Source: Schmidtea nova (taxonomy: Eukaryota). From it: a stretch of DNA of 64,000 nucleotides. The notes under the pieces were generated by a model. It had not been told where the DNA came from, ran no database searches, and saw only the letters and a list, made by a program, of their open reading frames with translations. This document shows, in pieces, positions 22,618 through 64,000 of the stretch; the first letter of the stretch is position 1, and each line of letters starts with the position of its first letter. Position numbers and translations under genes: made by a program. Location: NCBI GenBank assembly GCA_044892505.1, contig CM097883.1, positions 114,142,001 to 114,206,000 of the forward strand. The letters are read 5' to 3'.

Positions 22618-22632
22618 AAAATAAGTAATAAA

Positions 22633-23436: not shown

Positions 23437-23748
23437 AATTGAAGAATACTTGAAACTCAACATGTTTACTAGAGATGAAAGTTGTTTATTGGTATAACCA
23501 GCACTTTGTGCATTTTCAAGTTGAACTTGAAAATGCACAAAGTGCTGGTTATACCAATAAACAACTTTCATCTCTAGTAAACATGTTGAGTTTCAAGTAT
23601 TCTTCAATTTTAGATTTTAGTTCTGAAAAGTCTGAATTCGAAGCAAGATTTCCAAAATATAACAGAAGAAAATAACAAACTTACACTTGGTATAGATTCT
23701 CTTTTACACAAGATTACAATTACTCCTGGTACATATGAATTACCTGCC

Positions 23749-24773: not shown

Positions 24774-24774
24774 A

Positions 24775-26828: not shown

Positions 26829-26923
26829 GAAATAAAACTTGTTAGAAAACAATAAAACAAAATTTGAGTGACAAGATGAAACAAGATTTCAAATCAAAAT
26901 TGAAAAAATTAAATGAAATATAA

Positions 26924-29900: not shown

Positions 29901-30301
29901 TCTTTACGAAGTTCAAAAACGTATGATCTAATTGTTATGGGTACTTTTAATTGTCGCCCAATTTCTCCAGAAACATACAAATCACCAAAGTTTTTCTCTG
30001 GTTCTTGGTGATGATTTTCTAAATGTAAATCAAGTCCAATCTTTGTCGTAAATTTTTTACAAACATCACAATATATAAAAGTTGGAGTTTTTTTCTCTAC
30101 ACCTATACATATAGCCTCGTGTACTCTTATACCACTTTTTAAATATCTAACTTTACATTTTCTACAGATTGTTGAGTTGGTATTATCCAATTGTTCAAAA
30201 TTTCTCAAATGATTTTTTGATTTTTTATGAGAAATGAATGCAGAATTTCTTGTAAATCTTTTGTTGCAAATTTCACAATAAAAGTTTGGAGTACTCGACA
30301 T
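26924..30301 (-). pseudogene. polB: Protein-primed family B DNA polymerase, multiply frameshifted, with N-terminal Zn fingers and an endonuclease-VII-like Zn domain
   Basis: GKSYIPL, INVKNED, DHDHFNGKFRG...CNL, FPYDW, YLRSDV, YIDATALY, KLLNNAVFGK, YMDTDS. Confidence 0.92.
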
Positions 30302-45000: not shown

Positions 45001-46399
45001 GACAATGATTTATATATACCCCACTTCATATTTTAAAAAAAATTTATAATAATAAAAAGACATTCAAGACAAAAAATTTATTGATAATAAACATCATTCA
45101 CAACAGTTCCAGAAAACAGTCTGGTAGGGATTTCCCATAAGGAAGTTGGTTCCGTTGAGGAGTAAAACAACATCCAATTTGGGTACGATTTCTCGAAAAT
45201 ATCCAATCGTACTATACGTCTGGCAGATATGAGAACGAAACAAAAAAATTAATTCCACAGAGCAACTGCCGCTTGCGACGATTGATAGATTTTATTTTTG
45301 TGGTTCCTCATCGGAAAGCTGCTGGAGAATTTTTATTTAAGCCCTCGAATTTAAAGGGAAAAGATATTGGTCTATCATAGACTTGGCATTGAACGACGAA
45401 CGTGGTGAATCTAGTGGCCTCTGAATCAAGTGATAATAAAGTAAAAATATATTGATAAATCTAAATTACCATTTTCGACGATGATAAATTTTCCAATTGA
45501 GTAGAATTTCATAATAGGAATTTGAGAGAAATTAAATAAATAAATGATAATTCAAATTGTTATCATTTACAATTGAGGGGAAATAAATTTTTCTTCTGGT
45601 TCAAACAAGAAGAATATTTCCGTTTGGTAAATTGCACCTAATTTTGTTCCAAATAAATTTAAAAATGCAAAAAATTTTTTAAATTAAATTCAAGAATTAA
45701 ATAATTTCAAAAGACCGAAATCTGATGGTTATAAATTATAAGCAAAAGTTTTACTAAATCAATTTCGTTACTAAGGCCTCAGCAAAATTTTAAAATCAAA
45801 ATATTGAAATTTTAATAAATATTTTATTATCAATTTAAAGCAAGATAGACAATAGGATTTGAATATAAATAAAGTTTACATAAATTTTAAATATAAAAAA
45901 CATAACAATTTAAGGAAATTGCGATAATGATAAAAATTTGGGTCTAAATAAGAGCAATTTGTATATTCCCAAATATATGCATTTTCTGAAGGAATAATTG
46001 ATCACCTAATTGAGTTGCGATAATATTTTCGAATGCATGCTTGCGAATAGAATAAAAGTGCTCAAATAAATTAATTGATTAATAAAGGAATCACGATTCA
46101 GCGAAAATATTCAAATAAAAATCTCGTAATAAACCTATACAGTGATAGAACAGATAAATTAAGGGGGACAAAAATGGGCAAGAAACCTTCTATCGGTAGC
46201 CCTTGGACCCAGGAGATATTCGGTCAATCATAGTTTCGTATTGACGACGCTCACTGATTGCGAATACCCACCCACTTGTTACAGTACCAACGTTACATAG
46301 TGACGGGTAACAAGGTGGTAATTTCAATGTTTTATGTGTTGAGTTGTTGATGAGAGCCATAGAAACGTCAAGGTCATATTGACGGTCAACAACCCACCA
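42082..46399 (+). repeat. Putative 5' LTR (~4.3 kb) of the giant element
   Basis: Starts TGTTGGG with similarity to the LTR B start; carries the A/B 3' block at 46150-46360; ends CCCACCA 10 nt before the PBS. Confidence 0.6.
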
Positions 46400-46409
46400 T
46401 ATAAAAATT

Positions 46410-46427
46410 TGGGGGCTCAGCCGGGAT
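46410..46427 (+). promoter_or_regulatory. Primer-binding site, tRNA-Pro type
   Basis: TGGGGGCTCAGCCGGGAT, 16/18 identical to the classical tRNA-Pro PBS TGGGGGCTCGTCCGGGAT. Confidence 0.85.
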
Positions 46428-47819
46428 ATCATCTCATCTAGTTTGTTTTGTTTGAAGCAAAAATCAATGAAAATGGCTTTACGTGGGAATTTATTAATGT
46501 TTTTGCGTTAGAAAGATAAAAGTATTTTAAAGAAAAACGAGATTTGGTGAAAGTTTTATAAAGATCGATAATCATTTGAGTATTTTCGACGAAAATGGAA
46601 AAAATTAGGTTTAATTATTAATATTATTTATATTGCTATTATTATTTTTACGTTTATACCGTTATAAGTATTATAATTATNNNNNNNNNNNNNNNNNNNN
46701 NNNNNNNNNNNNNNNNNNNNNNNNNNNNNNNNNNNNNNNNNNNNNNNNNNNNNNNNNNNNNNNNNNNNNNNNNNNNNNNNNNNNNNNNNNNNNNNNNNNN
46801 NNNNNNNNNNNNNNNNNNNNNNNNNNNNNNNNNNNNNNNNNNNNNNNNNNNNNNNNNNNNNNNNNNNNNNNNNNNNNNNNNNNNNNNNNNNNNNNNNNNN
46901 NNNNNNNNNNNNNNNNNNNNNNNNNNNNNNNNNNNNNNNNNNNNNNNNNNNNNNNNNNNNNNNNNNNNNNNNNNNNNNNNNNNNNNNNNNNNNNNNNNNN
47001 NNNNNNNNNNNNNNNNNNNNNNNNNNNNNNNNNNNNNNNNNNNNNNNNNNNNNNNNNNGATGTCATTATTATTACTAACGATATCGGTGTTATGTTATTT
47101 GATTGAAAATGACTGAGGTATGACCCCTGTAATTTTATTTTTGTTAGCAAAGAAGGACATGGAAAGTATCGGGTCTAAAAGAAATAACGGCGAAAATGGA
47201 GAAATACGTGAATTGTTTGTTTCAATTGATATAATCTAATGAGTTTGAAGTTTGAATGTTGAAAAAGATAGATTGTTGAAGTCAGAATGATGCATGGTGA
47301 TATTGGAATGTTGATCGCGACTCAATTCGGGAATCGAAATCGGGAATAACTCTAAAATCTTATGAAATCATAAAATAATATTTATCAACGACTTAAAAAC
47401 AAATATAATGATACAGAATCAAACAAGAAAACGTGAGACTTAACGCAAATATGAAAATTTTGAGATGCACAAAATTAGGACCCTAGTAAAAGGAGATGTT
47501 ATATGACCATAAGATATGGGATGGAGTTCACGCGAATCACTTAGAGAATAAATATTCGAATACGCAAAATTTGATTTCAGTAAGCGGAAAATTACCGAAA
47601 AATTGCGAGTACAGTAAATAAAAATATAATTATCTTAAAATTGATAAAAAGTGTAAAAATCATGAAAAAAAATTGTGTAAATAAATGTTTAATTATTTTT
47701 TATGTAGAAAATATTAGTATATTCAAAAAAATATAAAAATATAAGAAAAATCATAAAAATTATGTACATAATGGCTGATTATTTTAATATTTTATTCGAA
47801 AAATATCGAATATGGACGA

Positions 47820-48185
47820 ATGGAGAAAATTATAAAAATATAAAAATATAAAAAATATAAAAATACAAAAATATATGTATAAAAATGGCTGAATATTCTG
47901 TTAGTTAAAAATATAAAAATATAAAAATATAAAAATACAAAAATATATGTATAAAAATGGCTGAATATTCTGTTAGTTAAAAATATAAAAATATAAAAAT
48001 ACAAAAATATATGTATAAAAATGGCTGAATATTCTGTTAGTTAAAAATATAAAAATATAAAAATATAAAAATACAAAAATATATGTATAAAAATGGCTGA
48101 ATATTCTGTTAGTTAAAAATATAAAAATATAAAAATATAAAAATACAAAAATATATGTATAAAAATGGCTGAATATTCTGTTAGT
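47820..48185. repeat. 64-72-bp tandem repeat (5 copies) in the element leader
   Basis: tggctgaatattctgttagt at 47886, 47958, 48022, 48094, 48166. Confidence 0.9.
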
Positions 48186-48331
48186 AGTAGTTTTGAAAAA
48201 TACAAAATATATAAAAAATTATAAAAATTCGTGTACATAGATGTTGAAGTTTTTAATTTTTATTTTCGTTCAAATTATAATGAATGGTTAATTCAAAAAG
48301 TTGTAAACACCAGTCATCATGAATATTTTAG

Positions 48332-48814
48332 ATGGAATCGATTGAGCATATTTTACTACGAATCGAGTTGTTTTTCGATTTTAAAAATGACCCATTGCAG
48401 GTGTTGAGCGAGAAACTCGAACGAGTAAATGGAATAAAAGATGAATTATTGTTGAATCCTAGACCACAACCTGAGAATCTAATAGTGATTGCAGGAGTTG
48501 TAGGAACAACAAACGATATTTCGTTAGAAACAATTTACGAATTACAACGATTGCGACTGAATAATCCGAATTTTAATCTGAAAATACAAGAATGGATTGG
48601 TAAAATCGATAAAATCATGGACAAGCTAGAGAGATCGATAAATCAACAGATCGATTCGTTCGAAAGATGTTATATTTGTCGACAAAAAGAAGCGAACATT
48701 TTATTCATGCCATGTGGGCATTTGTGTTATTGCCAGCCGTGCTCTAGAGAAATAAAGAGGTGCGTAATCTGCAAACAGACAATTGATGACAAAATCATCG
48801 TATTTTGTTCGTAA
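48332..48814 (+). CDS. C-terminal RING finger protein (IAP/MDM2/LRSAM-type RING), probable E3 ligase
   Basis: CYICRQKEANILFMPCGHLCYCQPCSREIKRCVICKQTI. Confidence 0.85.
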   Translation: MESIEHILLRIELFFDFKNDPLQVLSEKLERVNGIKDELLLNPRPQPENLIVIAGVVGTTNDISLETIYELQRLRLNNPNFNLKIQEWIGKIDKIMDKLERSINQQIDSFERCYICRQKEANILFMPCGHLCYCQPCSREIKRCVICKQTIDDKIIVFCS

Positions 48815-49836
48815 AGAATGTCGATTCGAAATAAATGTTTTAGTCATGTTGAATATCGTCGATCATCCAGTACTCCAAATCGTCGTAAAAATTAAATAAA
48901 CACAGAACACTAGGTAATTAATGATTGAGAGTCGTGTAAAAACATAACAAGTAACGGCTAATGCCGAAAAATCAAACATTAGGAAAATGGGAATTTGTGA
49001 CAAAGTTACTTTTCTTTTCTTTTTGAATTTTCTTTAATATTATTATAAATCCTCCTCATCATTATTATATCGATACAAATTTCATTACTATAAATCTTCC
49101 TCATTACTGTTATTATATCGATTATCATTATTATATCGACCATTAGGACGAGCAATAAGTAGAGTAATAAAAATTGATTTTATAAGGAGAATCTTCTGAA
49201 ATAAGAGCGATAAATGAGTGTCTGAGTAGGAAATGGGAAAATAGTACACAAATTCATAACTGAGCTATCAAAAGATAGTACGACAAATTTTAATAGAGCT
49301 ATCAAAAGATAGTACGCCAATTTTTTTTGTGACAAAAGATAGTTTGTAATAAATGGGAAAAACTTGATTATCCTGAAGAGAAAAAGTAGAATAGGTTAAC
49401 CATCGCAAATGTCGATAAATTTCGTTTGTGACTGATCATCACAAATTGCGAAACAAGTTGACGCGATTATTTTACGATTTTGAATTAGGTGAAAGGGCTA
49501 AACCCGTAATGTTCGTCTTATACACCAGTTTGCCAAGGCATGATTGGTACACTGAGGTAGAAGGCAGTAACATGAGTAAAGAGAAAGTTGCTGAGAAAAT
49601 CAGATGCAGATTTTAGAAAGTCGAAAGAGTAAAAAGTGAATTTCGATGATTATAGTAGATGATAGTATAATAAGAAAAGATTCTACCATGGTAGTTAGGG
49701 AATTGATTCGTAATTGAGAAGTAGTAGAACAATTTGAGAAAAACAGTCAGCAACAGCGAATTTAGTTAAAAATTTGAGAATAGGGAAACGAGTGATTGAA
49801 TAGCATAAAGAGAATAATCGAAGACGGCCGAGAAAA

Positions 49837-50408
49837 ATTGAGAAACTTTGAGAGTTCATGTATGTGAGAGACTTTGAGAGTCCAGATAATTGAGAAACTT
49901 TGAGAGTTCATGTATGTGAGAGACTTTGAGAGTCCAGATAATTGAGAAACTTTGAGAGTTCATGTATGTGAGAGACTTTGAGAGTCCAGATAATTGAGAG
50001 ACTTTGAGAGTCCAGATAATTGAGAGACTTTGAGAGTCCAGATAATTGAGAGACTTTGAGAGTCCAGATAATTGAGAGACTTTGAGAGTCCAGGTAATTT
50101 AGAGACTTTGAGAGTCCAGATAATTGAGCGCTCTGGGAGAGACTTTGAGAGTCCAGATAATTGAGAGACTTTGAGAGTCCAGATAATTGAGAGACTTTGA
50201 GAGTCCAGATAATTGAGAAACTTTGAGAGTTCATGTATGAGAGACTTTGAGAGTCCAGATAATTGAGAAACTTTGAGAGTTCATGTATGAGAGACTTTGA
50301 GAGTCCAGATAATTGAGAAACTTTGAGAGTTCATGTATGAGAGACTTTGAGAGTCCAGATAATTGAGAAACTTTGAGAGTTCATGTATGTGAGAGACTTT
50401 GAGAGTCC
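49837..50408. repeat. ~26-bp minisatellite with two alternating variants
   Basis: gagagactttgagagtccagataatt and gagaaactttgagagttcatgtatgt repeated about 20 times. Confidence 0.92.
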
Positions 50409-51175
50409 AATGTTTGTGGATATTGTTGAGAAATTTAGGAAAAACGTTTGAGAGATAGAATTAAATAAAACTGCGCAGAAAAAATTTTGTTATGACAGAG
50501 AAAAACATTGAACGCGAATACTTAAGGTGTAGTAATACAAACCGTTAATAAGAGCAGATAAAAGACATCGAGAAATACTTAGGAAATAAAATAATGGCCA
50601 TGAATAGATAACGAACAAGACATTTTTTCCTCAAATGCCGAGATGAGTATGATCATACTGTTATTATAGTATTAGTAATATTATTATTATTGTTACTATT
50701 ATTATTATTATTATCAGGGTATAGATAACTGATACGACCATATAGATAATTATTACGAGATATAGATAATTTAAAATCTGAGCTCAGAGTAAAAGGGGGG
50801 TAAATGGCGTCGATGAAGAAGCGATATTTTTATTTAGATTGTCCAACAGATCAAAGCCAAGCCAAGAGATAGTCAAATCAATCAGTTATTGAAGAGGTAT
50901 ATATAGAAGAAAAGAAGAAAAAGAAGTCTAATTGAAAAGGAAAGAAGTAAAAGAAAATAAATCAAAGAAGATCCAATTGAAGATAAAAGAAAGATCAGCA
51001 ATCGATATTAAACACAAATTGACAATATTACCAAACCAACCAAGTTCGTAAAGTCGAAAGATAAAGAGTCAAATCTATTAAAAACGACGAAAGGAAATTA
51101 AAAAGAAATAAAGCTGATAAATAAAGAAGTAAAATCCACAATATTAGAAAGTTTGTAGCCGATTTTCAGAAAGAA

Positions 51176-54100
51176 ATGGAGGAGAATCAGAAAGTTACCA
51201 GTGCAAACTCAGAAGATAATTTATTAAAAGAAGAGCAGAAAATAACCAGTCCAAAGGTAGAAGATAATTTGCAGGAAGAAGAAAAAGAAGTAATAACAAT
51301 GAAAATGCAACTACAACAGAATATCGAAGGAAAAGTAAATGAAATGATAACCGAATTATCAGACGTTGAAATTGAAAGAAAGGGAAATGTATATGAATTT
51401 TCAGTAAAAGATATGGAGGGAGAAGAAAAGAAGAAGTTTGTGGAGAAATATAACCGAAAAAGAAGAGAAAGAAGAAGCAATGATGATACATGTAGCATGG
51501 ACGAGAAATGGGATGAATCTACGACAATCAAATTAGAAGAAGTGGCACAAAGATTGTTAACAATTACCATGGAAGAAATGACGAAAATGGATCAAAAATC
51601 AGAAGAAAAAAGAAAATCAGCAAAACTCGAAAGATCAAGACAAACGGAAACGTCAAAGACCGAACGATTAATCAGTAACCTAAGCAAGAGTGCAGGAAAT
51701 CAATGTGAAACAACAACTGAATTACTAAAATGGGTTATAAAAAATAGTGCAAATATATCAAATATGAGATTGATAGTGAAAGAAATCGAGAAATGCAGAC
51801 GTTTATGCCCTTGGTATTCAACACAATTTGATGACATCATGAGAAAATGGAAACAACTGGAACAAACAAACGATGATCCACAGATGTGCAGATTGAAAAT
51901 TCAGTTTCCGAGTCTAGAAGAAATAAAGATGAATGTATCATTAACAACAAAGATCAAAGAGATAAAAGAGAGATTACCATTCAATTTACCATTTCACTTG
52001 AAATATGATGGAGAATCGCTGGATGATGATATAGAAATCAGTGTAACCCCGATACAAATCGAAACAAGTAATAAATTAACTATTGATAAAATTGCAGGAA
52101 GCGAGTTGACCAGAAAAGCGAGAGGTGAAGATAATCCCGAAACAACGATAATTGCAATGATGAAAACTCCAGCTGGACCAACACTTACAATTAACATCGA
52201 GGTTAATGGTGTGAAAGTTGACGCGATGATAGATACTGGCGCAAATATATCAGCAATAGATATTGATATGATACCAGAAATGTTACGGTTATGCATCGAG
52301 AAAACATCAGTAGACGTAATAACATGCAGTAAAGAATCTGTCGATATCGTTGGAAAGATATGGACAGACATCGAATACAGAAATGTAAAAATATCAACTT
52401 ATTTGACAGTAATAAAACAACTGGGTGCATCATGCATTATTGGAACAGACTTAATACCAAAACTGTTAAAAGGATCTGTAATTGATTTGAATACGATGAA
52501 GTTGAAACACCAAATTGAAGAAAATTGCACAAGAGAAACAGCGACAGAACAATCAAATCAAGAAATGACCAGAAAAGGACAAGTATGTATGTTTCGAGAG
52601 AATAAAAATGACGATTGGCTACATCGTATATTAACTGCGAGCAGAAAAGTAAATCAGCCGACAACAATATCTGAACAACCTAAGATAGTTGACGATGTAA
52701 AAATGGAGCACCGCAAAAAGATGGAATTGATCATTGAGATTACCAAAGAAATTATGCCAGAATGGTCACAAAGTAAAAATCTATTTGAAATATTGGGAGG
52801 AGTAAGCTTAATGGTTGAGGAATATGCCAAAGGAAATGAAACGACAGAAGCGATGAATACCATAAAAGAAAGATTACCAATATTATTTACAATTGCCAGT
52901 TTTAAAGATGAGATACCGTTATATCACGCAATAAAAAGTGGGAATGAACAGAGAATGTTTGAAATCATAAAACTCATGGAAAAGTGCAAGCAACATACCA
53001 ACACGAAAAACTGGAAAGATCAAACACCCTTGATGGTAGCAATTGAAAAAGGAGGATCCAAGAAACTCATAGCAGAACTGATGAGAACCGGATCAAGTTT
53101 TAAAGAAAGAGATGATAAAAATGAAACGGTGTTATCTTATGCAGTGCAAGCAAATAACCATCAAATAATCAAATATATTATGTCAAATGCTACAGAAGAA
53201 GATATTGAAGTGCTCAGTTCAGATCCAAATCCATTAGTAAATGCAGTGAACAAAGATGCCGACGAAACAACAGCAAAAATGATTAAATGGTTACATCCAG
53301 TTACGCACGAAGGAGTGATAAATGTCAATGACAGATTTGAAGACGGTGAAAATATGATAATGAAAAGAGCCATGAAAAGAAAATGGAAAATGTATAAAAC
53401 GATTAAAGCATTGCTGCGAAGACCTGATTTCAGATTTACAAACAACAAAAAAGAAAAAGAAAGAATTGGATCTAAAAGACATGAATTATATCAGCAAGTT
53501 ATCATATGGAAAGAAAATATAAAAGAAAGCAGAATTCACCGAAGCTGGAACAACGCCAAAGATGAAATAACCAAGAGAGCAAATATAAAAGCCGAAGCAG
53601 ACGAAATAGCTAAAAGATATGAAGAAATAATAAAATTAATAAATGTCGAGGACGACATTTTAAACAGAACCGAGGGTGGTTCTGATGATCACAATGAGTC
53701 TGACGATGAAGGTGAAGAGAATAACAACAACAAAACAAAGAAAGATGACAATGAGAGTATCAACAGAAACAATGACAAAGACGAGAAAGATGATGGAAAA
53801 AGCAATAACGACGAAATTGGGAACAAAAGTGATGAACCCAAGCAAGAAACTTCAAACTATGAAAAACGAACAGCATGTCTACATAAAACTCGAATAAAAG
53901 ACATAATATTACTGATATTGATGCTGTCAGCATTGAAAGGAACGGAAGCTGATGACAAGAGAAAACCAGTACAAGTATTAACACAAGGAGCAGATAATGA
54001 AGAAGCATGTTGGAGTAGCATCAACTTGCAAAGTAAAGGAGATAACCCAGTCAAATGTCAACGAGCAGAAGGAGGAGAAATCCGAATAAATGGATTAAAA

Positions 54101-54286
54101 CGAGAAACAAAATATAAAATCTGTGTTTACAAAAAGAAAGCAGCACAAAGATTGTTTAGAACACTCGTACGCCAGATAGTAGCACATAATGGTTCAAAAG
54201 TCACCCAAGAAGACATAAAAGTCATATTAACCGACGAACTAGATGAGAACATCAGAGTGTCGTCGAAACGCAAGCTGCCGGAATAA
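51176..54286 (+). CDS. 1036-aa polyprotein: acidic N-terminus, ubiquitin-like domain, retroviral-type aspartic protease, ankyrin repeats, acidic linker, internal signal-like segment
   Basis: UBL-like RLKIQFPSLEEIKMNVSLTTKIKEIKERL...HLKYDGESLDDD; INIEVNG...IDTGA...IIGTDL; ANK-like PLYHAIKSG, TPLMVAIEKG, TVLSYAVQAN; IILLILMLSALKGTEA. Confidence 0.85.
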   Translation: MEENQKVTSANSEDNLLKEEQKITSPKVEDNLQEEEKEVITMKMQLQQNIEGKVNEMITELSDVEIERKGNVYEFSVKDMEGEEKKKFVEKYNRKRRERRSNDDTCSMDEKWDESTTIKLEEVAQRLLTITMEEMTKMDQKSEEKRKSAKLERSRQTETSKTERLISNLSKSAGNQCETTTELLKWVIKNSANISNMRLIVKEIEKCRRLCPWYSTQFDDIMRKWKQLEQTNDDPQMCRLKIQFPSLEEIKMNVSLTTKIKEIKERLPFNLPFHLKYDGESLDDDIEISVTPIQIETSNKLTIDKIAGSELTRKARGEDNPETTIIAMMKTPAGPTLTINIEVNGVKVDAMIDTGANISAIDIDMIPEMLRLCIEKTSVDVITCSKESVDIVGKIWTDIEYRNVKISTYLTVIKQLGASCIIGTDLIPKLLKGSVIDLNTMKLKHQIEENCTRETATEQSNQEMTRKGQVCMFRENKNDDWLHRILTASRKVNQPTTISEQPKIVDDVKMEHRKKMELIIEITKEIMPEWSQSKNLFEILGGVSLMVEEYAKGNETTEAMNTIKERLPILFTIASFKDEIPLYHAIKSGNEQRMFEIIKLMEKCKQHTNTKNWKDQTPLMVAIEKGGSKKLIAELMRTGSSFKERDDKNETVLSYAVQANNHQIIKYIMSNATEEDIEVLSSDPNPLVNAVNKDADETTAKMIKWLHPVTHEGVINVNDRFEDGENMIMKRAMKRKWKMYKTIKALLRRPDFRFTNNKKEKERIGSKRHELYQQVIIWKENIKESRIHRSWNNAKDEITKRANIKAEADEIAKRYEEIIKLINVEDDILNRTEGGSDDHNESDDEGEENNNNKTKKDDNESINRNNDKDEKDDGKSNNDEIGNKSDEPKQETSNYEKRTACLHKTRIKDIILLILMLSALKGTEADDKRKPVQVLTQGADNEEACWSSINLQSKGDNPVKCQRAEGGEIRINGLKRETKYKICVYKKKAAQRLFRTLVRQIVAHNGSKVTQEDIKVILTDELDENIRVSSKRKLPE

Positions 54287-54480
54287 CAAGGAAAAGGATC
54301 TGTGTAAATATTGTATAAAAGTATATTGTAATAAAAGTAGTATGAAAATTGTGTAAATACTGTACAAATAATATGTTAACGAAAAAAATGGTTTAAAACG
54401 TAAAATTAATTGATGATGAAAAAACAACAACTATACCCTGTCATAGAAATATTATTCCTTTCTAGAAGCTCTAATCAACA

Positions 54481-55929
54481 ATGAAAAAACTAGCCAGTAT
54501 AATTGTCCTATGCTCCGTATTCAACACCTTATCAAGAAACAATGCAGAAGAATACTTTTTCAGCACAACAACAGCTAATCAGATTGCCTATAAAACAATT
54601 GAAAAGAGACCTAAAAACTCCTATGAAAACATTCAATTACATGTCCTATTGACAAGCTTATCCGGAACATTGCTATATTTAACAAACGACGATGGTAATC
54701 AATTAATTTTAACCCTCTATAATGAAATCAGTGAAAGAATGAAGATAGAATACAAAGAGCTTGATTATGTTGTAGAACTTTGCGAGTTATGCCAAGATCA
54801 AAGCACCAGCGAATGTGAATTGTACAAATATCGATCAATCAAAGTAAATATCAAGATTGCAGATAAACTCGCTGTCAAATGTAACCAAGGCAAGGAAACA
54901 TTCTTTGAGTATGGAGAAAAACAAATTACTAAAACTGATTACCCAACGATAAAGGAAATTGACAAAACAACAACACTTATCTACGTCATGAACACACCTC
55001 AACATGACAAAGGATACCCCAATCCTGAACAATTACAAGGTTGTGTGTATAAAGTGGAATACAATAATAAAACGCTGAAAATGGAAAGGAGCAGTGAAGA
55101 GATAAAAAACGAATGTCGAAAAATATGTACAGACAATATCTGTAATGAAGGTAAATGTTATGAAACATTTTCCGAGAAACCTATCTGTAATTGTAAATTT
55201 ACCCCAAAAAACGGTCGGTACTGTAACACCAGCAGCATTAGCCGGAAATACCGAAGAATCAACGCACAAAAGCAAACACTTTGGATAGATTATGTAAAGT
55301 TATTAATAAATAACAACTCGAAGGAGCTAATTTTTGAAATGGAGAACAAAGAATCCAGATTGTACATACGGAGAGAAAGAGCATCAATTACAGTCAAATA
55401 TGAAAACAAGAAAGACTGGTATATAGAAGGCTTTTTGGCCAACCAGGTTGATGAAGTCAAACTGATAATAATAGGCATGAAGTTCACGGAGAAAGGAATC
55501 CATTTCCATATTATCAATCAGAAAACCGAAATCTCAAGAGAAATGCCTGTTTTAGAAAAGATGAATGAAATACCTTGGAAACTTATAACGATTGCAGATA
55601 GTGTAGAAATGATATATAAGATACACCATTCACGGTACGATTGGTGCAGTACTGACATGGACGAAATTAGGAATAATGACAGAACATGTGCGGAAATTGA
55701 AGTAGTTCCTCCAACGAACGAAGCGAGAAGCCTAACAATGAAAAAGTTACCAATGGAGACAAATTATAAGATCAGTCGTCAAACATTCGTCAGTACATTA
55801 GTAATAGAAATTATAATCCTAGTCACCGGAACTATTGGAATTTTTGTCCTCGTATACAAGAGAGCAAAACGGAAACTCGAACAACGAGTAAATATGATTT
55901 TGGAACAAGTTCATATGACCCCAGTATAA
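54481..55929 (+). CDS. Type I membrane protein with an EGF-like domain
   Basis: Signal peptide MKKLASIIVLCSVF; CTDNICNEGKCYE...CNCKFTPKNGRYC; TM LVIEIIILVTGTIGIFVLVY then KRAKRK; ends TPV. Confidence 0.8.
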   Translation: MKKLASIIVLCSVFNTLSRNNAEEYFFSTTTANQIAYKTIEKRPKNSYENIQLHVLLTSLSGTLLYLTNDDGNQLILTLYNEISERMKIEYKELDYVVELCELCQDQSTSECELYKYRSIKVNIKIADKLAVKCNQGKETFFEYGEKQITKTDYPTIKEIDKTTTLIYVMNTPQHDKGYPNPEQLQGCVYKVEYNNKTLKMERSSEEIKNECRKICTDNICNEGKCYETFSEKPICNCKFTPKNGRYCNTSSISRKYRRINAQKQTLWIDYVKLLINNNSKELIFEMENKESRLYIRRERASITVKYENKKDWYIEGFLANQVDEVKLIIIGMKFTEKGIHFHIINQKTEISREMPVLEKMNEIPWKLITIADSVEMIYKIHHSRYDWCSTDMDEIRNNDRTCAEIEVVPPTNEARSLTMKKLPMETNYKISRQTFVSTLVIEIIILVTGTIGIFVLVYKRAKRKLEQRVNMILEQVHMTPV

Positions 55930-56078
55930 ATAAAGAGGAACAGTGTATATAGTGTATAAAATTATATTGTATTATAAAAGTAGAATATATTTGTATAATA
56001 AAAATTTAAAAATCCAAAAAAATGAATACCTCAAAACTGGGAAAAACAAATGATAATATTGTGTAATTATTGACAGAA

Positions 56079-56714
56079 ATGAATCCGAACAACGAGAATC
56101 AAAGTTATCAAACATCAGTTCCAACGTTCAATGAACCATCAAATCAAACTCAGTTTCCAGAAGATACCAATATACGAGAAAGAGAAGGGTCACTGCAAAC
56201 CCCAGTAATCGAAAATGAAACGCAAAATCCAACAATTGACGATAGAAATCTGATATACCAAGTCGAAATTCCACTATTTGATGAAACCATGAACCCAATT
56301 CAAACGACATTCGTATTAAATCAACAACCAACAAATAGCCAGACTCAATCAATATCAGCTCCGATGGTTTATCAGCAGACAATGACGCAAGAGTTATCAT
56401 GGAAAACGCAATGTGAATTATTAAGCAGGATGTTGAATCAAGCCTATGCACAATGGAAAAACGAACAAGCTTTGTTAACAGAAAGTGTAAACAGAAATTT
56501 ATCATATCTTGCTAAAATGGAAGAACAACAACAAATGATAATCCAAAAGGACCAGAGAATTGAATGGTTAACAAGACATACGGAGTGGCAAACAAACGAA
56601 ATTAGAAGATTGAATGAGACGCGAGAAGAAGTCAGAGCATGGTATAACTGGTTAGACAATTTTCCAGAACCGGTTCGAGAACCTGACTCGACGGGAAGGG
56701 ATGAACTATTATAA
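56079..56714 (+). CDS. Q/N/T-rich disordered plus coiled-coil protein
   Basis: Open frame; first ATG 2 nt after a CAG acceptor (track starts at TTG 56070). Confidence 0.7.
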   Translation: MNPNNENQSYQTSVPTFNEPSNQTQFPEDTNIREREGSLQTPVIENETQNPTIDDRNLIYQVEIPLFDETMNPIQTTFVLNQQPTNSQTQSISAPMVYQQTMTQELSWKTQCELLSRMLNQAYAQWKNEQALLTESVNRNLSYLAKMEEQQQMIIQKDQRIEWLTRHTEWQTNEIRRLNETREEVRAWYNWLDNFPEPVREPDSTGRDELL

Positions 56715-56808
56715 AAATTTAAAACCAGTGTAAATAAAATGTAAAAATGTGAATATGAATAAAACTTGGTATAAAGAGCAAAACGAAAAAATTATAAATT
56801 TTTTTAGA

Positions 56809-58212
56809 ATGCAGACCGAGAATCAGCAGAAACAAGAAGAATTGATCGAACTATATCAGATACTACAGAGACAACGGATAGAACCAACAGAATTTCAAGA
56901 AAGATTTAAATGTAAAGTATGTAGAAATTTATTGATAGAACCCAGACAAACTGAATGTGGATGTCGAATATGCACTAATTGCGTGATGAAAATAATACGA
57001 ACTAAGCAGAAGCTATGTCCTGAATGTGGTGAAGCAATAATAGATCAATTTGACCAAACCAGACCAGATATCGCAATGAATCGGGAAATTATGAACGCAG
57101 CAACAACCTGTCCAAATAAACCATGTGTATGGAGTGGGCCAATAAAATGGATCGCCAAACACCTTTATAATTGTGATGGTACGAAAGCCAAATGCAAGTG
57201 GTGTGAAGAAGAAATGTTGAAGAAAGTCAAAGACAGTCATGAGGAAATGTGTGAACAACGACAGGAAATCTGTGAGTTTTGCAACGAAACAGACGCTTGG
57301 ATAGTGTTAAAAGATGAGCATTGGAATATAGAAGAAGGGCAAGTATGTGACGAGTATGAAGGTAATTGTAATCAATGTGGAATGGCAGAAAACGTGAAGC
57401 TAAAAGAACATTGGGAAATATGCGAAAAGAAGCCTACTGCATGTCCACTAAAATTATTCAATTGCAAAGTGAGATTACCAAAAGAGGAAATACAAAAGCA
57501 TGTAGATGAAAATAGTGTCAATCATTTGAGAACCGTTGTGGAAGCTATTGGAGCAACCGCACTGGTAATTGGAGAAGCCAACACAGAAATAAAATCTCAC
57601 AAAATCATGATACAAGAGATGTTGGATACGAGAGGAAACTTTGAAAGAATAAAAGAACAAATGATCCAAAAAATGATACTATTAGACCAGAAAATAGCAG
57701 AAATATCAACAATCCAACAAAGGTTGGAAAGCATATTGCCAGCAATGGAAGAACTACCCGTCACACCCTACTATTGGAAAATCACAGAATTTACAGAGAA
57801 ATTGAGACTAGCAAGAGAAGGAGGTCAACGTGTATGGACAAGTCCACCTTGTCACAGTTGGAAACATGGTTTCAAGCTTAGATTCAAAGTATATCTAACG
57901 GGAGACGGACTAGGAGCCGGAACTCATTTATCTGTATATTTTCAAATATGTAAAGGAGATTATGACGATTGGTTAGAATGGCCCTACGATTGCGATATAA
58001 CTATGATGATCGGAACAAAGGAAAACAACGTTCGGGAAGTATTCAGACCAAACTTGAAGAAGGTAGAAGCAGCTTATAGGAAGCCGATCGAAAACTACAA
58101 CGTAGCTGTAGGAAATCCACGTTTTATTGCATTACATTATTTAACCACAGAACAATCATTATATTTGGTAAATAATATCCTGTATCTGATTATCGAAGTG
58201 AGGAAGCCGTAG
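56809..58212 (+). CDS. TRAF: Full-architecture TRAF (RING, TRAF Zn fingers, coiled coil, MATH)
   Basis: CKVCRNLL...CGCRIC...CPEC RING; CPNKPC, CEFC, CPLKLFNC fingers; YYWKITEF...SPPC...YLTGDGLGAGTHLSVYF...DDWLEWP MATH domain; ATG 56809 preferred over GTG 56749. Confidence 0.95.
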   Translation: MQTENQQKQEELIELYQILQRQRIEPTEFQERFKCKVCRNLLIEPRQTECGCRICTNCVMKIIRTKQKLCPECGEAIIDQFDQTRPDIAMNREIMNAATTCPNKPCVWSGPIKWIAKHLYNCDGTKAKCKWCEEEMLKKVKDSHEEMCEQRQEICEFCNETDAWIVLKDEHWNIEEGQVCDEYEGNCNQCGMAENVKLKEHWEICEKKPTACPLKLFNCKVRLPKEEIQKHVDENSVNHLRTVVEAIGATALVIGEANTEIKSHKIMIQEMLDTRGNFERIKEQMIQKMILLDQKIAEISTIQQRLESILPAMEELPVTPYYWKITEFTEKLRLAREGGQRVWTSPPCHSWKHGFKLRFKVYLTGDGLGAGTHLSVYFQICKGDYDDWLEWPYDCDITMMIGTKENNVREVFRPNLKKVEAAYRKPIENYNVAVGNPRFIALHYLTTEQSLYLVNNILYLIIEVRKP

Positions 58213-58432
58213 TGAAGATGGAAAAAGTGTAAATATGTCTGTATTATAATGAAGTATCTGTATCATAATGTACAAAATAAAATTAAAAAATCACAAAAAA
58301 CATAAAAATTAAAAAGAAATATAAAAATGAGAAAAACCAAAAAATCAAATATAAAAATGAGAAAAATCAAAATTTTGTAAATATAGAAAACAAAAATTGT
58401 GAAAATATAACGGAGAAAATATTGTAGATACA

Positions 58433-59602
58433 ATGACTGAAAGGAAGATCGTGAAAATACGAGAAGATGACAGATCATTCAAAAGTTTATGCGAATTAAT
58501 GAAAAGAGGTAAAGAAAAGATGTCAAAACCAATTACCTCAGAATTGATTTATTGTCAATTTACACGAACAATATCGAATGTTCCCAAGGAAAGAAATTAT
58601 GGCAAATTCAAAACTATCGATGAAACGTTGAAAAATGAGAACCGAAGATATATAACCTTTTTACAACAAGACAATTTCTATGAGAAGCAATACAGAAAAT
58701 TCGCCAAAGATGGTTTGTATTTTGCAGGGACAATTGAGAAACCCGATAAAGTAACCTGTGTATTTTGCAGAATTGAAATAGAACCTTGGAGAATTAACGA
58801 TGATCCACTAACAGAACATAGAAAACTTTCACCCACATGCCAGTTTGTGTTAAAGGCATGCGAAAAACTAAGAAAACCAACATCAATGAACAACGACAAA
58901 GAAGAAAAACCCAAAATAGTAACGATAACTTCAACAGGTCCAGCAAAGATACGATTCATAGAAATTGATCCAAAATATACGATTAATGGGAGAACTGACA
59001 CCTTTGCAGATAAAAAGATGGGTATCAGATTAGCAATAGAAGGTTTTTATGCAATAAATGAATCAACAGCTGAATGTTCAGAGTGTGGAATACAATATCA
59101 ATTACCAAAAGAGGAAGGAGAATACCTGAAACACAACGAATATTGTAAATATGGAGAAGAATTATATGAAGACGAAGAACCGATCAATTATAAAAACCCA
59201 GAGATGCCTGTTAATGAATTATTAGTAGATAAGATATTAGACGAACCACGAACTCAAAAGGTAATGGAACGCACCGGCAAAAGCGAAATATTTGTGAAAG
59301 AAGTTGTCAGAGAGAGATTGAGAAGAAATGGAGAAACATTTGGATCAACCCTAGAATTTTTCAAAGCTATGATACAGTTCACCAGAAAATCCCAAGTTGT
59401 CAACCCAGAATCATGTATCAAGAAAGTTATATTAAATAAACACCCCTGTTCAATCTGTTGGATAAAGAAAGTGGAAGTTATTCATTTACCATGTGGACAT
59501 CTGTTGGCATGTGAAAATTGTAGCAATAAATTGAGATTGTGCTCAATGTGCAGGAAACCGGTCGACAAACGGATCAAGGGATTCCGTTATGCCGATCAAT
59601 AA
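58433..59602 (+). CDS. IAP: Inhibitor of apoptosis (one canonical BIR, one degenerate BIR, C-terminal RING)
   Basis: FAKDGLYF...DKVTCVFC...W...DDPLTEHRKLSPTCQF; RTDTF...EGFY...AECSEC...HNEYC; CSICW...LPCGHLLACENC...CSMCR. Confidence 0.95.
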   Translation: MTERKIVKIREDDRSFKSLCELMKRGKEKMSKPITSELIYCQFTRTISNVPKERNYGKFKTIDETLKNENRRYITFLQQDNFYEKQYRKFAKDGLYFAGTIEKPDKVTCVFCRIEIEPWRINDDPLTEHRKLSPTCQFVLKACEKLRKPTSMNNDKEEKPKIVTITSTGPAKIRFIEIDPKYTINGRTDTFADKKMGIRLAIEGFYAINESTAECSECGIQYQLPKEEGEYLKHNEYCKYGEELYEDEEPINYKNPEMPVNELLVDKILDEPRTQKVMERTGKSEIFVKEVVRERLRRNGETFGSTLEFFKAMIQFTRKSQVVNPESCIKKVILNKHPCSICWIKKVEVIHLPCGHLLACENCSNKLRLCSMCRKPVDKRIKGFRYADQ

Positions 59603-59736
59603 TCCAATCAAGCAACCTTGTAAATAAATTGTAAAGATTTTAACTATAATCGATGTATACAAGTATTATTTAATAAGCATGAGCAACAAAAAATGTATAA
59701 ACAAAAGGAAATTACCCATGTTATTATTATTTCAGG

Positions 59737-61284
59737 ATGAATATACAACAATTGATAGACATCCTAGATCAGGAGATGGCCAAAAGACAAGAACAACTAA
59801 ATCAAATGAGAAATTATGAACAAAGAATGGAAGCCATCCAAGAGAACGTTAAAATGATTGAGAAACGAACCCAAGAGATCAATAAAATAAAAGAGGAAAA
59901 TGAGGAACTACGAAAAATAATAATCGACAAGGCACATATCGAAGCTGAACTAGACAATTATAAACGAGAGTACAGGGAAATGGAGAGAAAACTCGAGCAC
60001 GAACAACGGAAGTCGGTACCGTTGAAAAATCAAGCGAGATTAAGAAAAGAGGAGCTCGAAACTTATAAAAGAGATACCGAAACAAGGTACGACAACACCA
60101 TAAGATTCTATCAGCAGCAACTCGAAAGTGAAAGAAACAGATATGAAGCCATGAAAAAGAAATGGGAAAAGTGTCGAGATGAAGCATTTGTTTTGAGAGG
60201 ACAACCTCAAAAGAAGCTTAAAGTCAGAACAAGAAACATTGAACCTGAAAGCGAACAAGAAAAGATCATTAGAAAGGTTAAAGCAGAGGCTAGGAAATGG
60301 AAACAAGAACACCAAGATTTATTGGAAATGGCTCGACACAGAAAAATGCTACACGAAGAATTACTAAGACGGAGAGACGTTCAAATCGAGGCTCTGAAAG
60401 AGGAATGTCATTGGTATGCAGACATACGTCATGAGGAAACGGAGAAACTCAGAAAAGAAATATTCCAGTTGAAAACGAGCGGACAGTTCAGAGAAAGAAG
60501 CATAAAGCATCAAATAAAGTGGCTAATAGAACAAGCCAGAACATGGAAAAAGACCTGGAAAAGAACTCGAGACGAACTACGAGAATTTCCAAAGAAGCTG
60601 ATGTCGATAAATGAAGCAGAATTGTGGGAAAATGCAGAAAAGCAAGAAATAGAAAACAAAGAATTAAAACGACAAATTCAATTAAAAACTGAATGGAATC
60701 AAAGGAGAATGAAATTTACCAGGAATCAAGAAGCTCGTATCAAATATCTGGAATTCGAAAATAGGCAATATGATCAACAAAAGAATATGGATGATAGAAG
60801 TATTGAAGAATTGACAATCGAATTGACTATTGCAAACCGTGAAGTCAACGGATATCGAGGAACAAATACTCATAAAGATATTGTCATTCAACACCAGCGA
60901 AGGCAGATAGAAGAGACAAAGGCCGAATGTGAGAAAGCGATCCAGCAATCGCAGTATGAGATTGAAATGGCTATCCAAAGTTTGGAAGAAAATCGCCAAA
61001 ACTATGAAAGAGAGATTGAAAGGTTGAAAAATATGGAAAATACGAGAGAGCTCGAGATAGAAAAGGAACAGCTGAGTGAAGAACTCGATTATATGACCTA
61101 TTTGCTAGATGAAGAGATAGAAATCTCAAGAACTTTGCGAGAGAGAGTTCAGAGCCTACAAAATCAACCTCCAATAATTCTATGGCCACTATATCCAACA
61201 CCAATACAACCTGTACATTTGGAGCAAGAAAATCCTCAAATCGAAGATGAAGGGTTCGGAGAAATTGAAGAGACGTTTGTATAA
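59737..61284 (+). CDS. 515-aa long coiled-coil protein
   Basis: Intact ORF, E/K/R/Q-rich heptads throughout, ends EETFV. Confidence 0.8.
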   Translation: MNIQQLIDILDQEMAKRQEQLNQMRNYEQRMEAIQENVKMIEKRTQEINKIKEENEELRKIIIDKAHIEAELDNYKREYREMERKLEHEQRKSVPLKNQARLRKEELETYKRDTETRYDNTIRFYQQQLESERNRYEAMKKKWEKCRDEAFVLRGQPQKKLKVRTRNIEPESEQEKIIRKVKAEARKWKQEHQDLLEMARHRKMLHEELLRRRDVQIEALKEECHWYADIRHEETEKLRKEIFQLKTSGQFRERSIKHQIKWLIEQARTWKKTWKRTRDELREFPKKLMSINEAELWENAEKQEIENKELKRQIQLKTEWNQRRMKFTRNQEARIKYLEFENRQYDQQKNMDDRSIEELTIELTIANREVNGYRGTNTHKDIVIQHQRRQIEETKAECEKAIQQSQYEIEMAIQSLEENRQNYEREIERLKNMENTRELEIEKEQLSEELDYMTYLLDEEIEISRTLRERVQSLQNQPPIILWPLYPTPIQPVHLEQENPQIEDEGFGEIEETFV

Positions 61285-61523
61285 ATAATAAAAGTGAATG
61301 TAAAGTGTAAAAAGAAATTGAAATGTAGTGTAAAAAGAAAAAGTTGTAAAATATATCCAAAAAACTAAATAAAAAGCAGAAAAATAAAAAATTCAATAAA
61401 AATTAGAAAAAATGAAAAACAAATAAAAATTAGAAAATGTTAAAAATGATAAAAATGATAAAAACAAAAACAAAATTAAAAAAAAACTGTAGAAAAGAGT
61501 TATGAAAATTCAAATTATAGAAA

Positions 61524-62099
61524 ATGAGATTATTGAAGCAAAGATCAGAACCAAAACAACAAACGATATCAAAAGAAAGATTCAAAAAATGGAAAAGAGC
61601 AACAGAGCAATATTATCAAGACCAAATAGACCAATTGAAGGAAGTAGTGAGCAAAGATAGAAAATATATCGCACAAATGGAGCAAGAGTGCGAGACGATG
61701 GAAATAATCAAGCGAGAAAATTATCTATTTCGCCAACAAAATGGTCTCACTCAAAAATATTGCGACAGACAGAAGCAAGAGATTGACAGACTCAAAAGGG
61801 AAATAAGCAGTGAACAGAACACTGATAATAAAAGGAGAATTACGATCGAGTCATTACAACGATCATTGAAGAACAAACAGAAAAAGATTATAAAAAGAGA
61901 GAAACAGATAATAAAGTTGAAAAGTGAAATCATCGAAGCAAAGTTTGATACGTTCAAAGCAAAGAAAGTTGTAGAAATCAAAACGGCAGAAAATTACGTC
62001 CTCAAAGAACAAAGGCGAAAAGAAGCAGACGAGATTGCAAAAATGGGAAACTGGAAGCCAGAAAGTCCGTTAAAGCTAAATGAAAAGATGAAAGAATAA
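61524..62099 (+). CDS. 191-aa basic coiled-coil protein
   Basis: Intact ORF after a TAG acceptor. Confidence 0.75.
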   Translation: MRLLKQRSEPKQQTISKERFKKWKRATEQYYQDQIDQLKEVVSKDRKYIAQMEQECETMEIIKRENYLFRQQNGLTQKYCDRQKQEIDRLKREISSEQNTDNKRRITIESLQRSLKNKQKKIIKREKQIIKLKSEIIEAKFDTFKAKKVVEIKTAENYVLKEQRRKEADEIAKMGNWKPESPLKLNEKMKE

Positions 62100-62192
62100 A
62101 ATATATCCAAACTCATGTAAATACCCCTGTAAATAAAAAAGAGAAAATTTGAAAAATCATTAAACAAAATTGAATCTATAAATCTATAGAAA

Positions 62193-63017
62193 ATGAGCAA
62201 TCTAATGAGGATCACAACAACCATCATGATATTTATAATTACAAACTGCCGAAGCGAAGAAGCATTGAGTCAATGTCAAGCAAGCCATCCATTTAGAAGA
62301 TACGATAGCATTTGTGTAAGCTATCAAGAAATTTGTAGCACCAGAAATGAGGAGTGTCAGCAAATCCAACTACAATGTCAACAATGTCCTAAATCCAGAG
62401 AAGATTCAATCACCATCCTTAAACAATTGAGAAATGAAACTCAACAATTAATCCAACTACAAATCTCCTTAACCAAAAGAAACAATCTTCAACTAAAGAA
62501 ACAGCTCGAAAACCAATCATCCTTCAAACAGTTAACGACCGAACTAAAGAAATTGAGCAAGTTAATAGAAAAATCTCTAAATAATAAAGATGAAGTTAAT
62601 GAGGAAAGATCAAGTTTCACAGAGGAGTTAAATCAAAAACTAAAAACTCAACTTCATCAGACCGAGAGAATTATAAAGCAATTAATATTACCCGAAAAGC
62701 AAAAGGAGATTATCCCTAAACAAGGATCAACCAATAAGGACGTCAGAGACCGAGAAGCAGCCATCACAGTCGTTCTACAAGGCATCAGTCTTTTCGCGGT
62801 CATAATGATCCTTAGCATTGCTGCATCAATCGGATTAGAAAAAATGAAATTAGAAAAAGCGAAAATCCAGCTGAATACCATCAAACGAATCACCCATGAA
62901 GACAACAACCCGTCAGAAAATTTTCTAAGATCAATATTTGAAGATCCAGTTCCAGAACAGCCTAATTCTGAGACATCTACAACCTCGGTGCAGATGAATT
63001 ACTTCTATAAACAATAA
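62193..63017 (+). CDS. Type I membrane protein with Cys-rich N-terminus and coiled-coil ectodomain
   Basis: Signal-like MRITTTIMIFIITNC; six Cys; heptads; TM AITVVLQGISLFAVIMILSIAASIGL. Confidence 0.75.
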   Translation: MSNLMRITTTIMIFIITNCRSEEALSQCQASHPFRRYDSICVSYQEICSTRNEECQQIQLQCQQCPKSREDSITILKQLRNETQQLIQLQISLTKRNNLQLKKQLENQSSFKQLTTELKKLSKLIEKSLNNKDEVNEERSSFTEELNQKLKTQLHQTERIIKQLILPEKQKEIIPKQGSTNKDVRDREAAITVVLQGISLFAVIMILSIAASIGLEKMKLEKAKIQLNTIKRITHEDNNPSENFLRSIFEDPVPEQPNSETSTTSVQMNYFYKQ

Positions 63018-63213
63018 TACGATTCGATACCCCTTTTGACAAGTCATGTATTTTCTTCCATTCATTTGATCTATCTATCTATTTGTATTCTCATCTTTAA
63101 CAATATCATCATTAAATCATAACCCTGTGTAAAGATCGTAACGCCTTTGTAAATAACAAAATTATTTATCGTCATTATTCAAATTCTTTCTATTAGAAAC
63201 ACAAAAATCAACA

Positions 63214-64000
63214 ATGAAATCGTACCGAGAAGTTTTCCTAATCGCCATGATCACAACAATTTATTGTCATCTCGAAGAAACCCAGAAATCAAGCCAATTA
63301 AGCCCAAATCAACAATGTAATAAAGAACCATTGGAAATCTCTAACAACAAACAACTATCCGAAAAGATTGAGCAAGCCAAAATCGAAATTCAAAATACCC
63401 TTTTCAATCAAAATGATGAAATTTCAGGTCTAAAAAGAATAGCAAGGATAATATTAGCCGATTTAGCGATCAGAGATACATTCGAGGATATCTTTGATAA
63501 TGATCGAGAAACCCGTGACGTAATAAAAAGTCTCACCAAAGAACTTAAAACGAATATAGGCAAGTTAATCGATCAGCTAACGATAAATTCATCAAGTCCG
63601 AAATGTCTGAAACAAATCCAGAAAATTCATCATAACCTGTCCCAGCAGATTTCCGAAGTAGGAAACCAAACGGCACAACAACTAAGAAAGGCTTATTTCG
63701 AAAGCCTGACATTTAAGAATAAAATCCACAATCACATAAACGAGATATCGAAACCGGATAACAATCAAGGCAGAGACAAGTGCAGAGCACCCCTCCTATC
63801 ATCCAAACGAATTCTCGATATCTGCCTGATCATCCTTAACTTTTTCCTAATAATCGGAATTTGTGGTATAATACGGTTAGGCTTGACCGCCAAAAGAATG
63901 ATGAACAACATGACCTCCGAACAATCCAGAAGAAAAGATGACAAGAAACAGTTGATCAATACCGAGTCATTCAAACTATTCCAGTCGAAGATCCAACCAA
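63214..64000 (+). CDS. Type I membrane protein, 3'-truncated by the window edge (not in the ORF track)
   Basis: Manual translation MKSYREVFLIAMITTIYC...; TM ILDICLIILNFFLIIGICGIIRLGL; no stop before 64000. Confidence 0.75.
   Translation, partial: MKSYREVFLIAMITTIYCHLEETQKSSQLSPNQQCNKEPLEISNNKQLSEKIEQAKIEIQNTLFNQNDEISGLKRIARIILADLAIRDTFEDIFDNDRETRDVIKSLTKELKTNIGKLIDQLTINSSSPKCLKQIQKIHHNLSQQISEVGNQTAQQLRKAYFESLTFKNKIHNHINEISKPDNNQGRDKCRAPLLSSKRILDICLIILNFFLIIGICGIIRLGLTAKRMMNNMTSEQSRRKDDKKQLINTESFKLFQSKIQP

Follow-up and report, generated by a model that had tools for sequence, protein, structure and literature searches.

The stretch of DNA analysed here (the window: 64,000 nucleotides of Schmidtea nova, contig CM097883.1, positions 114,142,001 to 114,206,000 of the forward strand, assembly GCA_044892505.1) ends inside a pol-less, Burro-like long terminal repeat (LTR) element of 26.6 kb, which runs from 42082 to 4,656 bases past the window end. 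The element was flanked by a 5-bp target duplication (AAACG) and carried a 5' LTR of 4,318 bp with TG..CA ends (42082..46399), a 3' LTR of 4,318 bp just past the window end (flanking positions 339-4656; one difference from the 5' LTR), and a primer-binding site (PBS, 46410..46427) identical in two diverged families, which we take to be tRNA-Pro-like. Exact-motif counts in the genome were 2,230 for the LTR-PBS junction and 1,682 for the 3' junction; the element is young, with about 2,000 copies. Its 17.9-kb interior consists of ten open reading frames (ORFs), A to J, all in the same orientation (plus strand, as for all other features of the element). A splice acceptor stands before each ATG and a splice donor after most stops; the spacers are therefore short spliceosomal introns, and the ORFs are laid out as exons that each hold a whole gene.

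ORF A (48332..48814, 160 aa, acceptor at 48331) encodes a RING finger and is also present in a pol-bearing sister type. ORF B (51176..54286, 1,036 aa) is an in-frame patchwork of polyprotein remnants, 32-62% identical to the sister polyprotein, with an aspartyl protease and ankyrin repeats and without reverse transcriptase (RT), RNase H or integrase. ORF C (54481..55929, 482 aa, one transmembrane (TM) helix near 440, no Pfam or PDB match) is an optional module, found in one of seven fetched multi-ORF copies, and ORF D (56079..56714, 211 aa) has no family and has homologs in two diverged lineages. ORF E (56809..58212, 467 aa) is a TRAF (RING, zinc finger, MATH) for which no relatives were found among the metagenome contigs searched, and ORF F (58433..59602, 389 aa) combines BIR and RING domains and is IAP-like. 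ORFs G (59737..61284, 515 aa, pN/pS 0.07) and H (61524..62099, 191 aa) are coiled-coil-like, ORF I (62193..63017, 274 aa) has a Cys-rich N-part and a TM helix near 191, and ORF J (63214..64000, ending 8 nt past the window, 264 aa, TM near 202) is the last ORF, with no donor at +15..+22. At the Pfam cut-off six of the ten ORFs had no family; MATH/TRAF, BIR, RING and ankyrin were the apoptosis/ubiquitin cargo domains found. Fetched copies gave pN/pS values of 0.07-0.49 for ORFs A to I (1-10 copies each), which are under purifying selection, and 0.97 for ORF J, which is neutral or diversifying. Because nine ORFs have values below 0.5, the ORFs each need individual expression.

ORF I was also compared with TNF-receptor clusters (Grindelwald, BAFF-R, TWEAK-R; Atlas score of 0.84 at most), a weak lead only. 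If ORF I were TNF-receptor-like, it would form a receptor-adaptor-ligase set with the TRAF of ORF E and the IAP of ORF F (56809-59602, 62193-63017).

A YAG was located 0, 6, 15, 2, 1, 5, 1, 3, 3 and 17 nt before the ATGs of ORFs A to J respectively, and 3 nt before an LTR-borne ORF of another family (12042..12632, plus strand, acceptor 12038, 67% identical to the LTR ORF of a sister lineage); all eleven distances had been listed in an earlier note on this DNA and were confirmed. The excess over internal ATGs that this note had proposed to check was also found: a YAG lay within 6 nt upstream of 8 of the 10 ORF starts. Internal in-frame ATGs had one this close in 20 of 105 cases (binomial P 5.4e-5), other ATGs in 65 of 420 and non-coding ATGs in 14 of 135; composition shuffles gave p values from 5e-6 to 1.5e-5 for 8 of 10. 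One free choice enters this count, 56809 being the second ATG of its frame (the first, 56755, has its YAG 26 nt away); when only first ATGs are counted, the figure was 7 of 10 (P 6.3e-4; shuffles 1e-4 to 2.7e-4). The start-linked acceptors were T-rich, with T in 47 of 90 positions at -12..-4 vs. 26 of 108 at 12 other spacer YAGs (Fisher 6e-5), and with T at -6 in nine and at -5 in eight of the ten; the spacers around them are A-rich and measured 93-239 nt from 51176 onward, up to the ATGs named in the earlier note. Copies in which T and C were exchanged at -3 of acceptors A, B and J retained the acceptor signal.

The same arrangement was present in sister lineages (two full lineages, both diverged, and a gene pair carried by an LTR), whose accessory genes had no blastn match to this element: of 15 accessory or LTR ORFs, 13 had a YAG within 6 nt before the start (12 if first ATGs are used), vs. 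61 of 345 internal ATGs and none of five broken polyprotein pieces. Acceptors were kept across lineages at 20-40% protein identity. An ATG upstream of the ORF start and inside the intron (56755 here) was likewise seen in one sister lineage. A further T-rich acceptor (50826..50837), overlooked earlier, is conserved: all four lineages have one 338-516 nt before the ATG of the polyprotein region (450-516 nt in the three other than this), with no ATG between. In this family 50837 was preceded by a GT 38 nt upstream, and no spliced copy was found for it. Before the polyprotein ATG of two sister lineages (L011:4968-5482 and L006:5396-5913) the frame was open and Met-free for about 150 codons once past a stop that lies 18-19 codons into the sequence behind the acceptor; judged from the frame, a non-AUG start of the polyprotein is possible there.

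Past each internal stop, at about 16-31 nt, lay a donor of the T/GTAAAT type that the earlier note did not mention. Across three diverged lineages, 15 of 16 spacers had a TGTA whose first letter stood at +15..+22 from the stop (7 of 8 in this element; background 0.24), and its position was fixed relative to the stop, not to the acceptor. It was found 34 times in the spacers vs. 14.7 times in dinucleotide shuffles (0 of 1,500 shuffles reached 34), and the donor motif was strand-specific in spacers (10 sense, 0 antisense). No TGTA or donor was present at +15..+22 after ORF A or after the last ORFs. One donor carried GTGAAT in place of GTAAAT, with the donor signal retained. The pattern was found post hoc and then tested by searching genomic copies for intron losses. 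GTAAATA is presumably also readable as a forkhead site. A Pumilio-element or CFIm/3'-end reading of TGTAAATA was dropped as the main one, the same GT being a splice donor in genomic copies; according to the part of PMC5068929 consulted, UGUA is not found upstream of planarian poly(A) signals.

All splice junctions were defined from genomic DNA copies: the genome was scanned for exon starts without the preceding intron end, and the loci were then fetched, so that the counts below are of copies, not of independent events. Exact GT..AG losses ended at 51169, 56076, 59735, 62189 and 63196 (five of the nine tested acceptors), four spacer introns being shown as spliced, and at these positions the YAGs of the earlier note are working 3' splice sites. 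Eight of the nine deletion classes ending at an acceptor began with GT (P about 1e-9). The intron before ORF B (51129..51169, 41 nt, GT..AG) gave 155 pattern matches, and in the 30 that were fetched it was always lost (29 exactly). This loss leaves both flanking repeats in place and is therefore not a microhomology deletion; the segment is alignable in the sister type. A tree of the loss needed 5 changes, and the copies recombine, so recurrence and recombination are inseparable in that number.

For the C-D spacer intron (55945..56076), the search at acceptor D gave one match, a copy without ORF C that had a GT..AG loss of 123-124 nt from a second donor, 55954. The F-G spacer intron (59620..59735) gave 20 matches, 4 from donor 59620 and 16 from donor 59631, all joined to acceptor 59735. 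The H-I spacer intron (62117..62189, 73 nt) was lost in 7 copies; the nine matches at acceptor I comprised these 7, one from 58108 and one unrelated, and a further search at this acceptor gave 81 A-run length variants with an intact acceptor and one deletion not starting at GT. The I-J spacer intron (63048..63196) gave 46 matches, all fetched: 18 from donor 63048, 26 from donor 63149 (16 exact, 10 one or two nt off) and 2 with changes at the acceptor itself. Relative to the stop, the used donors lay at +18/+29 (F), +18 (H), +31/+132 (I) and +25 (before D). Four further introns are predicted: B-C (54304..54465, 162 nt), D-E (56730..56807, 78 nt, containing the ATG at 56755), E-F (58229..58427, 199 nt) and G-H (61300..61520, 221 nt); no spliced copy was found in the genome for the last three. 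Intron sizes of 41-221 nt fit the short introns of planarians as described in the part of PMC13594981 consulted. The B and G joins were also visible in four DNA-like sequencing runs (kind unrecorded, one study), which may be the window's own source and hence are not independent.

Nearly all joins used the donor right after the previous stop. One copy joined 58108, inside ORF E, to 62189, skipping 4,082 nt and bypassing two other acceptors; distant cis-joins therefore occur. Neighbouring spacers were in view at 27 intron-less loci; these 34 adjacent spacers were without exception full length, and no locus had lost two introns. ORFs behind lost introns were intact in 21 of 38 cases vs. 44 of 53, a comparison confounded by copy age and duplicates. 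One pattern search in a sister lineage returned no spliced copy. Small GT..AG deletions inside ORF A (48367-48400, 34 nt) and ORF J (about 63426-63466, 39 nt), each in single runs, are putative cryptic splicing of element RNA. Two large family deletions (54055>59599 and 56509>59583) were considered as splicing products and rejected: they have overlaps and no GT..AG ends, and were assigned to template switching.

The explanation that we favour, at a probability of about one half, is that each ORF is expressed by cis-splicing of a putative 5' leader to one acceptor at a time. A cis leader is preferred because the donors in the gaps work, unlike in flatworm operons served by a spliced leader (SL), because a distant cis-join exists and because losses come singly; in the part of PMC12582326 consulted, cis-splicing is strongly prevented at the operon acceptors of parasitic flatworms. 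Since intron loss is one-way and does occur, yet old lineages keep their acceptors, a distant partner likely needs them. Such a distant donor would require the acceptors to place each ORF first on a message, and would lie upstream of the PBS or of the packaging region, so that leader-spliced RNAs would never be copied back; the intron-less copies would come from genomic RNA that had lost one intron to splicing before it was reverse-transcribed. An acceptor close to the ATG would exclude stray ATGs, and a donor close to the stop would end the exon, likely avoiding nonsense-mediated decay or letting U1 mask the A-rich spacer. The 50-55-nt rule for decay and the masking of poly(A) signals by U1 are two ideas on why the donor would sit about 17 nt past the stop. 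Deposition of the exon junction complex may be weak at short planarian introns, as suggested in the consulted part of PMC13594981.

The earlier note had proposed alternative cis-splicing of a common LTR leader and had named three donor hexamers in LTRs. Its acceptors work, and the hexamers exist and align in one column; all joins seen use element-internal donors, however, the LTR blocks belong to different families (no blastn match), and the hexamer of this element (46178..46183, GCAAGA) begins with GC. The aligned column reads GTAAGT or GTAAGA in four other LTRs and GCATTA in a sister LTR. A G at -1 could compensate for a GC donor, and the site at 46178 is, on its letters, a weak candidate donor.

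Several results weigh against a leader cis-spliced to single acceptors. The site at 46178 is GC in nearly all copies (only 3 non-C matches genome-wide), and a sister LTR has nothing donor-like in that column. Genome pattern searches gave no leader join at the nine tested acceptors or at 50837, and none was seen among the listed joints of the DNA-like runs (15 of 42 and 15 of 79), and distant-donor joins numbered 0 of 46 at acceptor J and 0 of 20 at acceptor G. Acceptors A, E, F, H and 50837 had no spliced copy in the same genome searches: only damaged acceptors matched at A, E and F (3, 2 and 1 respectively), and H and 50837 had zero matches. The 155 copies with the 41-nt loss may derive from one founder (they have a shared upstream haplotype), and the proportion of GT-starting classes falls to 8 of 11 if the off-by-one and off-by-two joins at J are counted. 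Short introns favour the local donor, which a leader would have to outcompete, and the stop-ATG gaps after splicing (16-21 nt in 6 of 8 junctions) also suit translational coupling. The absence of leader or SL joins itself counts for little, because RNAs joined in this way would have no PBS and hence would not return as genomic copies.

Trans-splicing was the other route suggested in the earlier note, and we consider it unlikely. Here a host spliced leader would cut a long RNA into single-gene messages at each acceptor, the local donors would be U1 sites that spare genomic RNA by restraining 3'-end cleavage, and local cis-splicing would be a side reaction. Planarians have SL trans-splicing (PMC10899757, in part), flatworm operon gaps peak near 100 nt, like the 93-239-nt spacers (PMC8629364 and PMC12582326, in part), and partial SL sequences have been reported beside LTR elements (PMC12582326, same part); this element, moreover, offers no convincing GT leader donor, and AATAAA is present in 7 of 8 spacers. 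Against this, AATAAA is not enriched (12 observed vs. 14.3 in shuffles; one sister lineage has 1 in 4 spacers), 5 of the 10 ORFs would not be in frame with an SL-terminal AUG, and no SL-joined copy was found in a genome screen of partial sensitivity. The would-be outrons also contain conserved, used donors, whereas cis-splicing is very rare at flatworm operon acceptors in the consulted part of PMC12582326.

We regard as similarly improbable a spliced polycistron with termination-reinitiation, in which all spacer introns would be removed, no more than about 16-23 nt would be left between each stop and the next ATG, and ribosomes would restart, splicing thereby separating translated RNA from packaged RNA. 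All observed joins but one link neighbours, the post-splice stop-ATG gaps are 32, 17, 16, 21, 18, 18, 20 and 47 nt, and the donor at +15..+22 is missing after the last ORFs and ORF A; the model also accounts for both fixed distances together. The 34 full-length adjacent spacers, however, are unlike copies of a fully spliced polycistron (two-intron loss in 0 of 27 loci), introns persist in old lineages though their loss would yield the same product free, and the E-F junction retains an out-of-frame ATG after splicing. Yield would probably drop steeply across nine steps, and reinitiation after long ORFs needs termination upstream ribosome-binding sites (TURBS) with overlapping or near stop and start codons, or a viral transactivator (PMC5972666, in part). 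The weakest alternative, transcription from internal promoters in the AGATAA repeat block or the spacers, with splice sites as 5'-UTR introns or passive by-products of mutually copied AT-rich spacers, would be in keeping with the homology of some spacers (B-C and C-D share their first 60 nt), the cryptic GT..AG mini-deletions inside ORFs A and J and the GT 38 nt upstream of 50837, but is very improbable given a motif that is strand-specific, fixed to the stops of unrelated ORFs and used as a donor, and acceptors that persist in lineages without alignable DNA.

Ten further copies were fetched, seven of the multi-ORF type with modules missing and three sharing only the leader and the 3' end. One of these three carries a single 4,893-codon ORF with Gag, CCHC, MATH, fusion protein, protease, RT, RNase H, integrase and ankyrin domains, whereas a Pfam scan of the ORFs of the present interior gave no gag core, env, RT, RNase H or integrase. 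With only polyprotein remnants in ORF B and a sister type that has the full domain order, the element is a non-autonomous relative of Burro, not an autonomous Burro. Multi-ORF and pol-bearing types have in common the LTR end, leader, ORF A and tandem repeats, diverge near 50778 and rejoin in the 3' UTR; to judge from this alignment, the multi-ORF type would be a passenger interior on a helper's ends. The start of the B-C spacer is a diverged duplicate of the C-D spacer (first 60 nt shared), and the stop of ORF C lies 15 nt before TGTA; ORF C thus seems to have arrived together with a copied spacer.

Burro/GYPSM1 are giant Ty3/gypsy elements of dugesiid planarians (PMC6431247). This element is like them in its multi-kb LTRs, thousands of copies, TRAF/MATH, BIR, ankyrin and coiled-coil cargo, tandem repeats and accessory ORFs, and its pol-bearing sister, which shares its LTR end and leader, has the Burro domain order of PMC6431247 in the 4,893-codon ORF. 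The difference is that one giant Gag-Env-PR-RT-RH-IN polyprotein there is replaced by ten separate ORFs here; the likeness is one of architecture, not of direct alignment to Burro1-4. The Burro section of PMC6431247 is silent on splicing and on the expression of accessory ORFs, and the main text of PMC8532177 contains neither "spliced" nor "splicing". A literature search, mostly at abstract level and with Grohme et al. 2018 and Lee et al. 2026 outside its reach, returned no report of Burro accessory-ORF splicing or of intercistronic introns in an LTR element; those two papers, or supplements, may already describe Burro transcripts.

Complex retroviruses (HIV-1, foamy viruses) and the adenovirus major late unit use one transcription unit with many acceptors ahead of downstream ORFs, unspliced RNA being the genome. 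Acceptors lie just upstream of downstream ORFs here too, but a post-stop donor closes each ORF, the ORFs do not overlap and a common leader is only proposed. Among LTR retrotransposons, spliced subgenomic RNAs are made for gypsy env, for the short gag of copia and by the gag-pro/pol intron of Ogre, with one intron each; the host spliceosome likewise separates ORFs in those elements, at up to nine or ten serial sites in the present one. SL operons of flatworms and nematodes (PMC8629364 and PMC12582326, in part) are similar in having co-oriented genes about 100-240 nt apart with an acceptor before each downstream ATG, and differ in that the gaps here have working cis donors, no poly(A)-signal enrichment and a location in a retroelement. 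Caliciviruses, influenza B and cauliflower mosaic virus (CaMV) have short stop-start gaps, unspliced and with TURBS or the transactivator TAV (PMC5972666, in part), and resemble the present element in its stop-start gap lengths after local splicing.

Other features of the window were as follows. A block of 26-nt tandem repeats (49784..50445), upstream of the polyprotein region, holds AGATAA in every unit, and the motif recurs in a block at 50720-50780 kept in sister lineages; these may be GATA-like sites or an RNA signal. Burro1 is described as intestinally enriched (PMC8532177, in part). An LTR-end block of about 230 nt (46171-46399) is common to otherwise unalignable LTR families, with 62 invariant columns in six sequences; an Rfam scan of 42000-64000 gave no match. 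T-rich, strong YAGs at 43135 and 43941 in the U3 of the LTR have no ORF downstream, and those of the 3' LTR could close messages beyond the polypurine tract. Read depth in the DNA-like runs peaked near 46000-46535 and dipped at 44667-45734 and over ORF C; it was not used as evidence. The element at 16346-20304 (minus strand) is small and, by our reading, gypsy-like; its 114-bp ends are identical and its gag-pol frames broken. The region 20951-30301 contains integrase-like, P-loop ATPase-like and PolB-like pieces, by our labels, with a 96-nt perfect inverted repeat (23427-23619), and is presumably a decayed Polinton.

Tentatively, and at somewhat less than even odds, these results describe a plug-in grammar of whole-gene exons (acceptor, ATG, ORF, stop, donor about 17 nt on), undescribed for mobile elements, in which new cargo would bring along a copied spacer intron. 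Taken furthest, this reading would make the spacer introns a switch for ribosome coupling, with stop and start about 20 nt apart or less once spliced, or for SL access, and so a ten-gene operon in a retrotransposon. Retro-copied intron losses can map the splice sites of a high-copy element from DNA alone. Lee et al. 2026, as cited in the consulted part of PMC13465017, report that one Burro element protects planarian stem cells; the expression of downstream Burro ORFs is not addressed in the portions of the literature examined, and this family supplies exact, testable junctions. The arrangement suggests a route by which a passenger that lacks pol, and whose cargo includes TRAF, IAP and possibly TNF-receptor-like genes, may gain and drop genes as modules.

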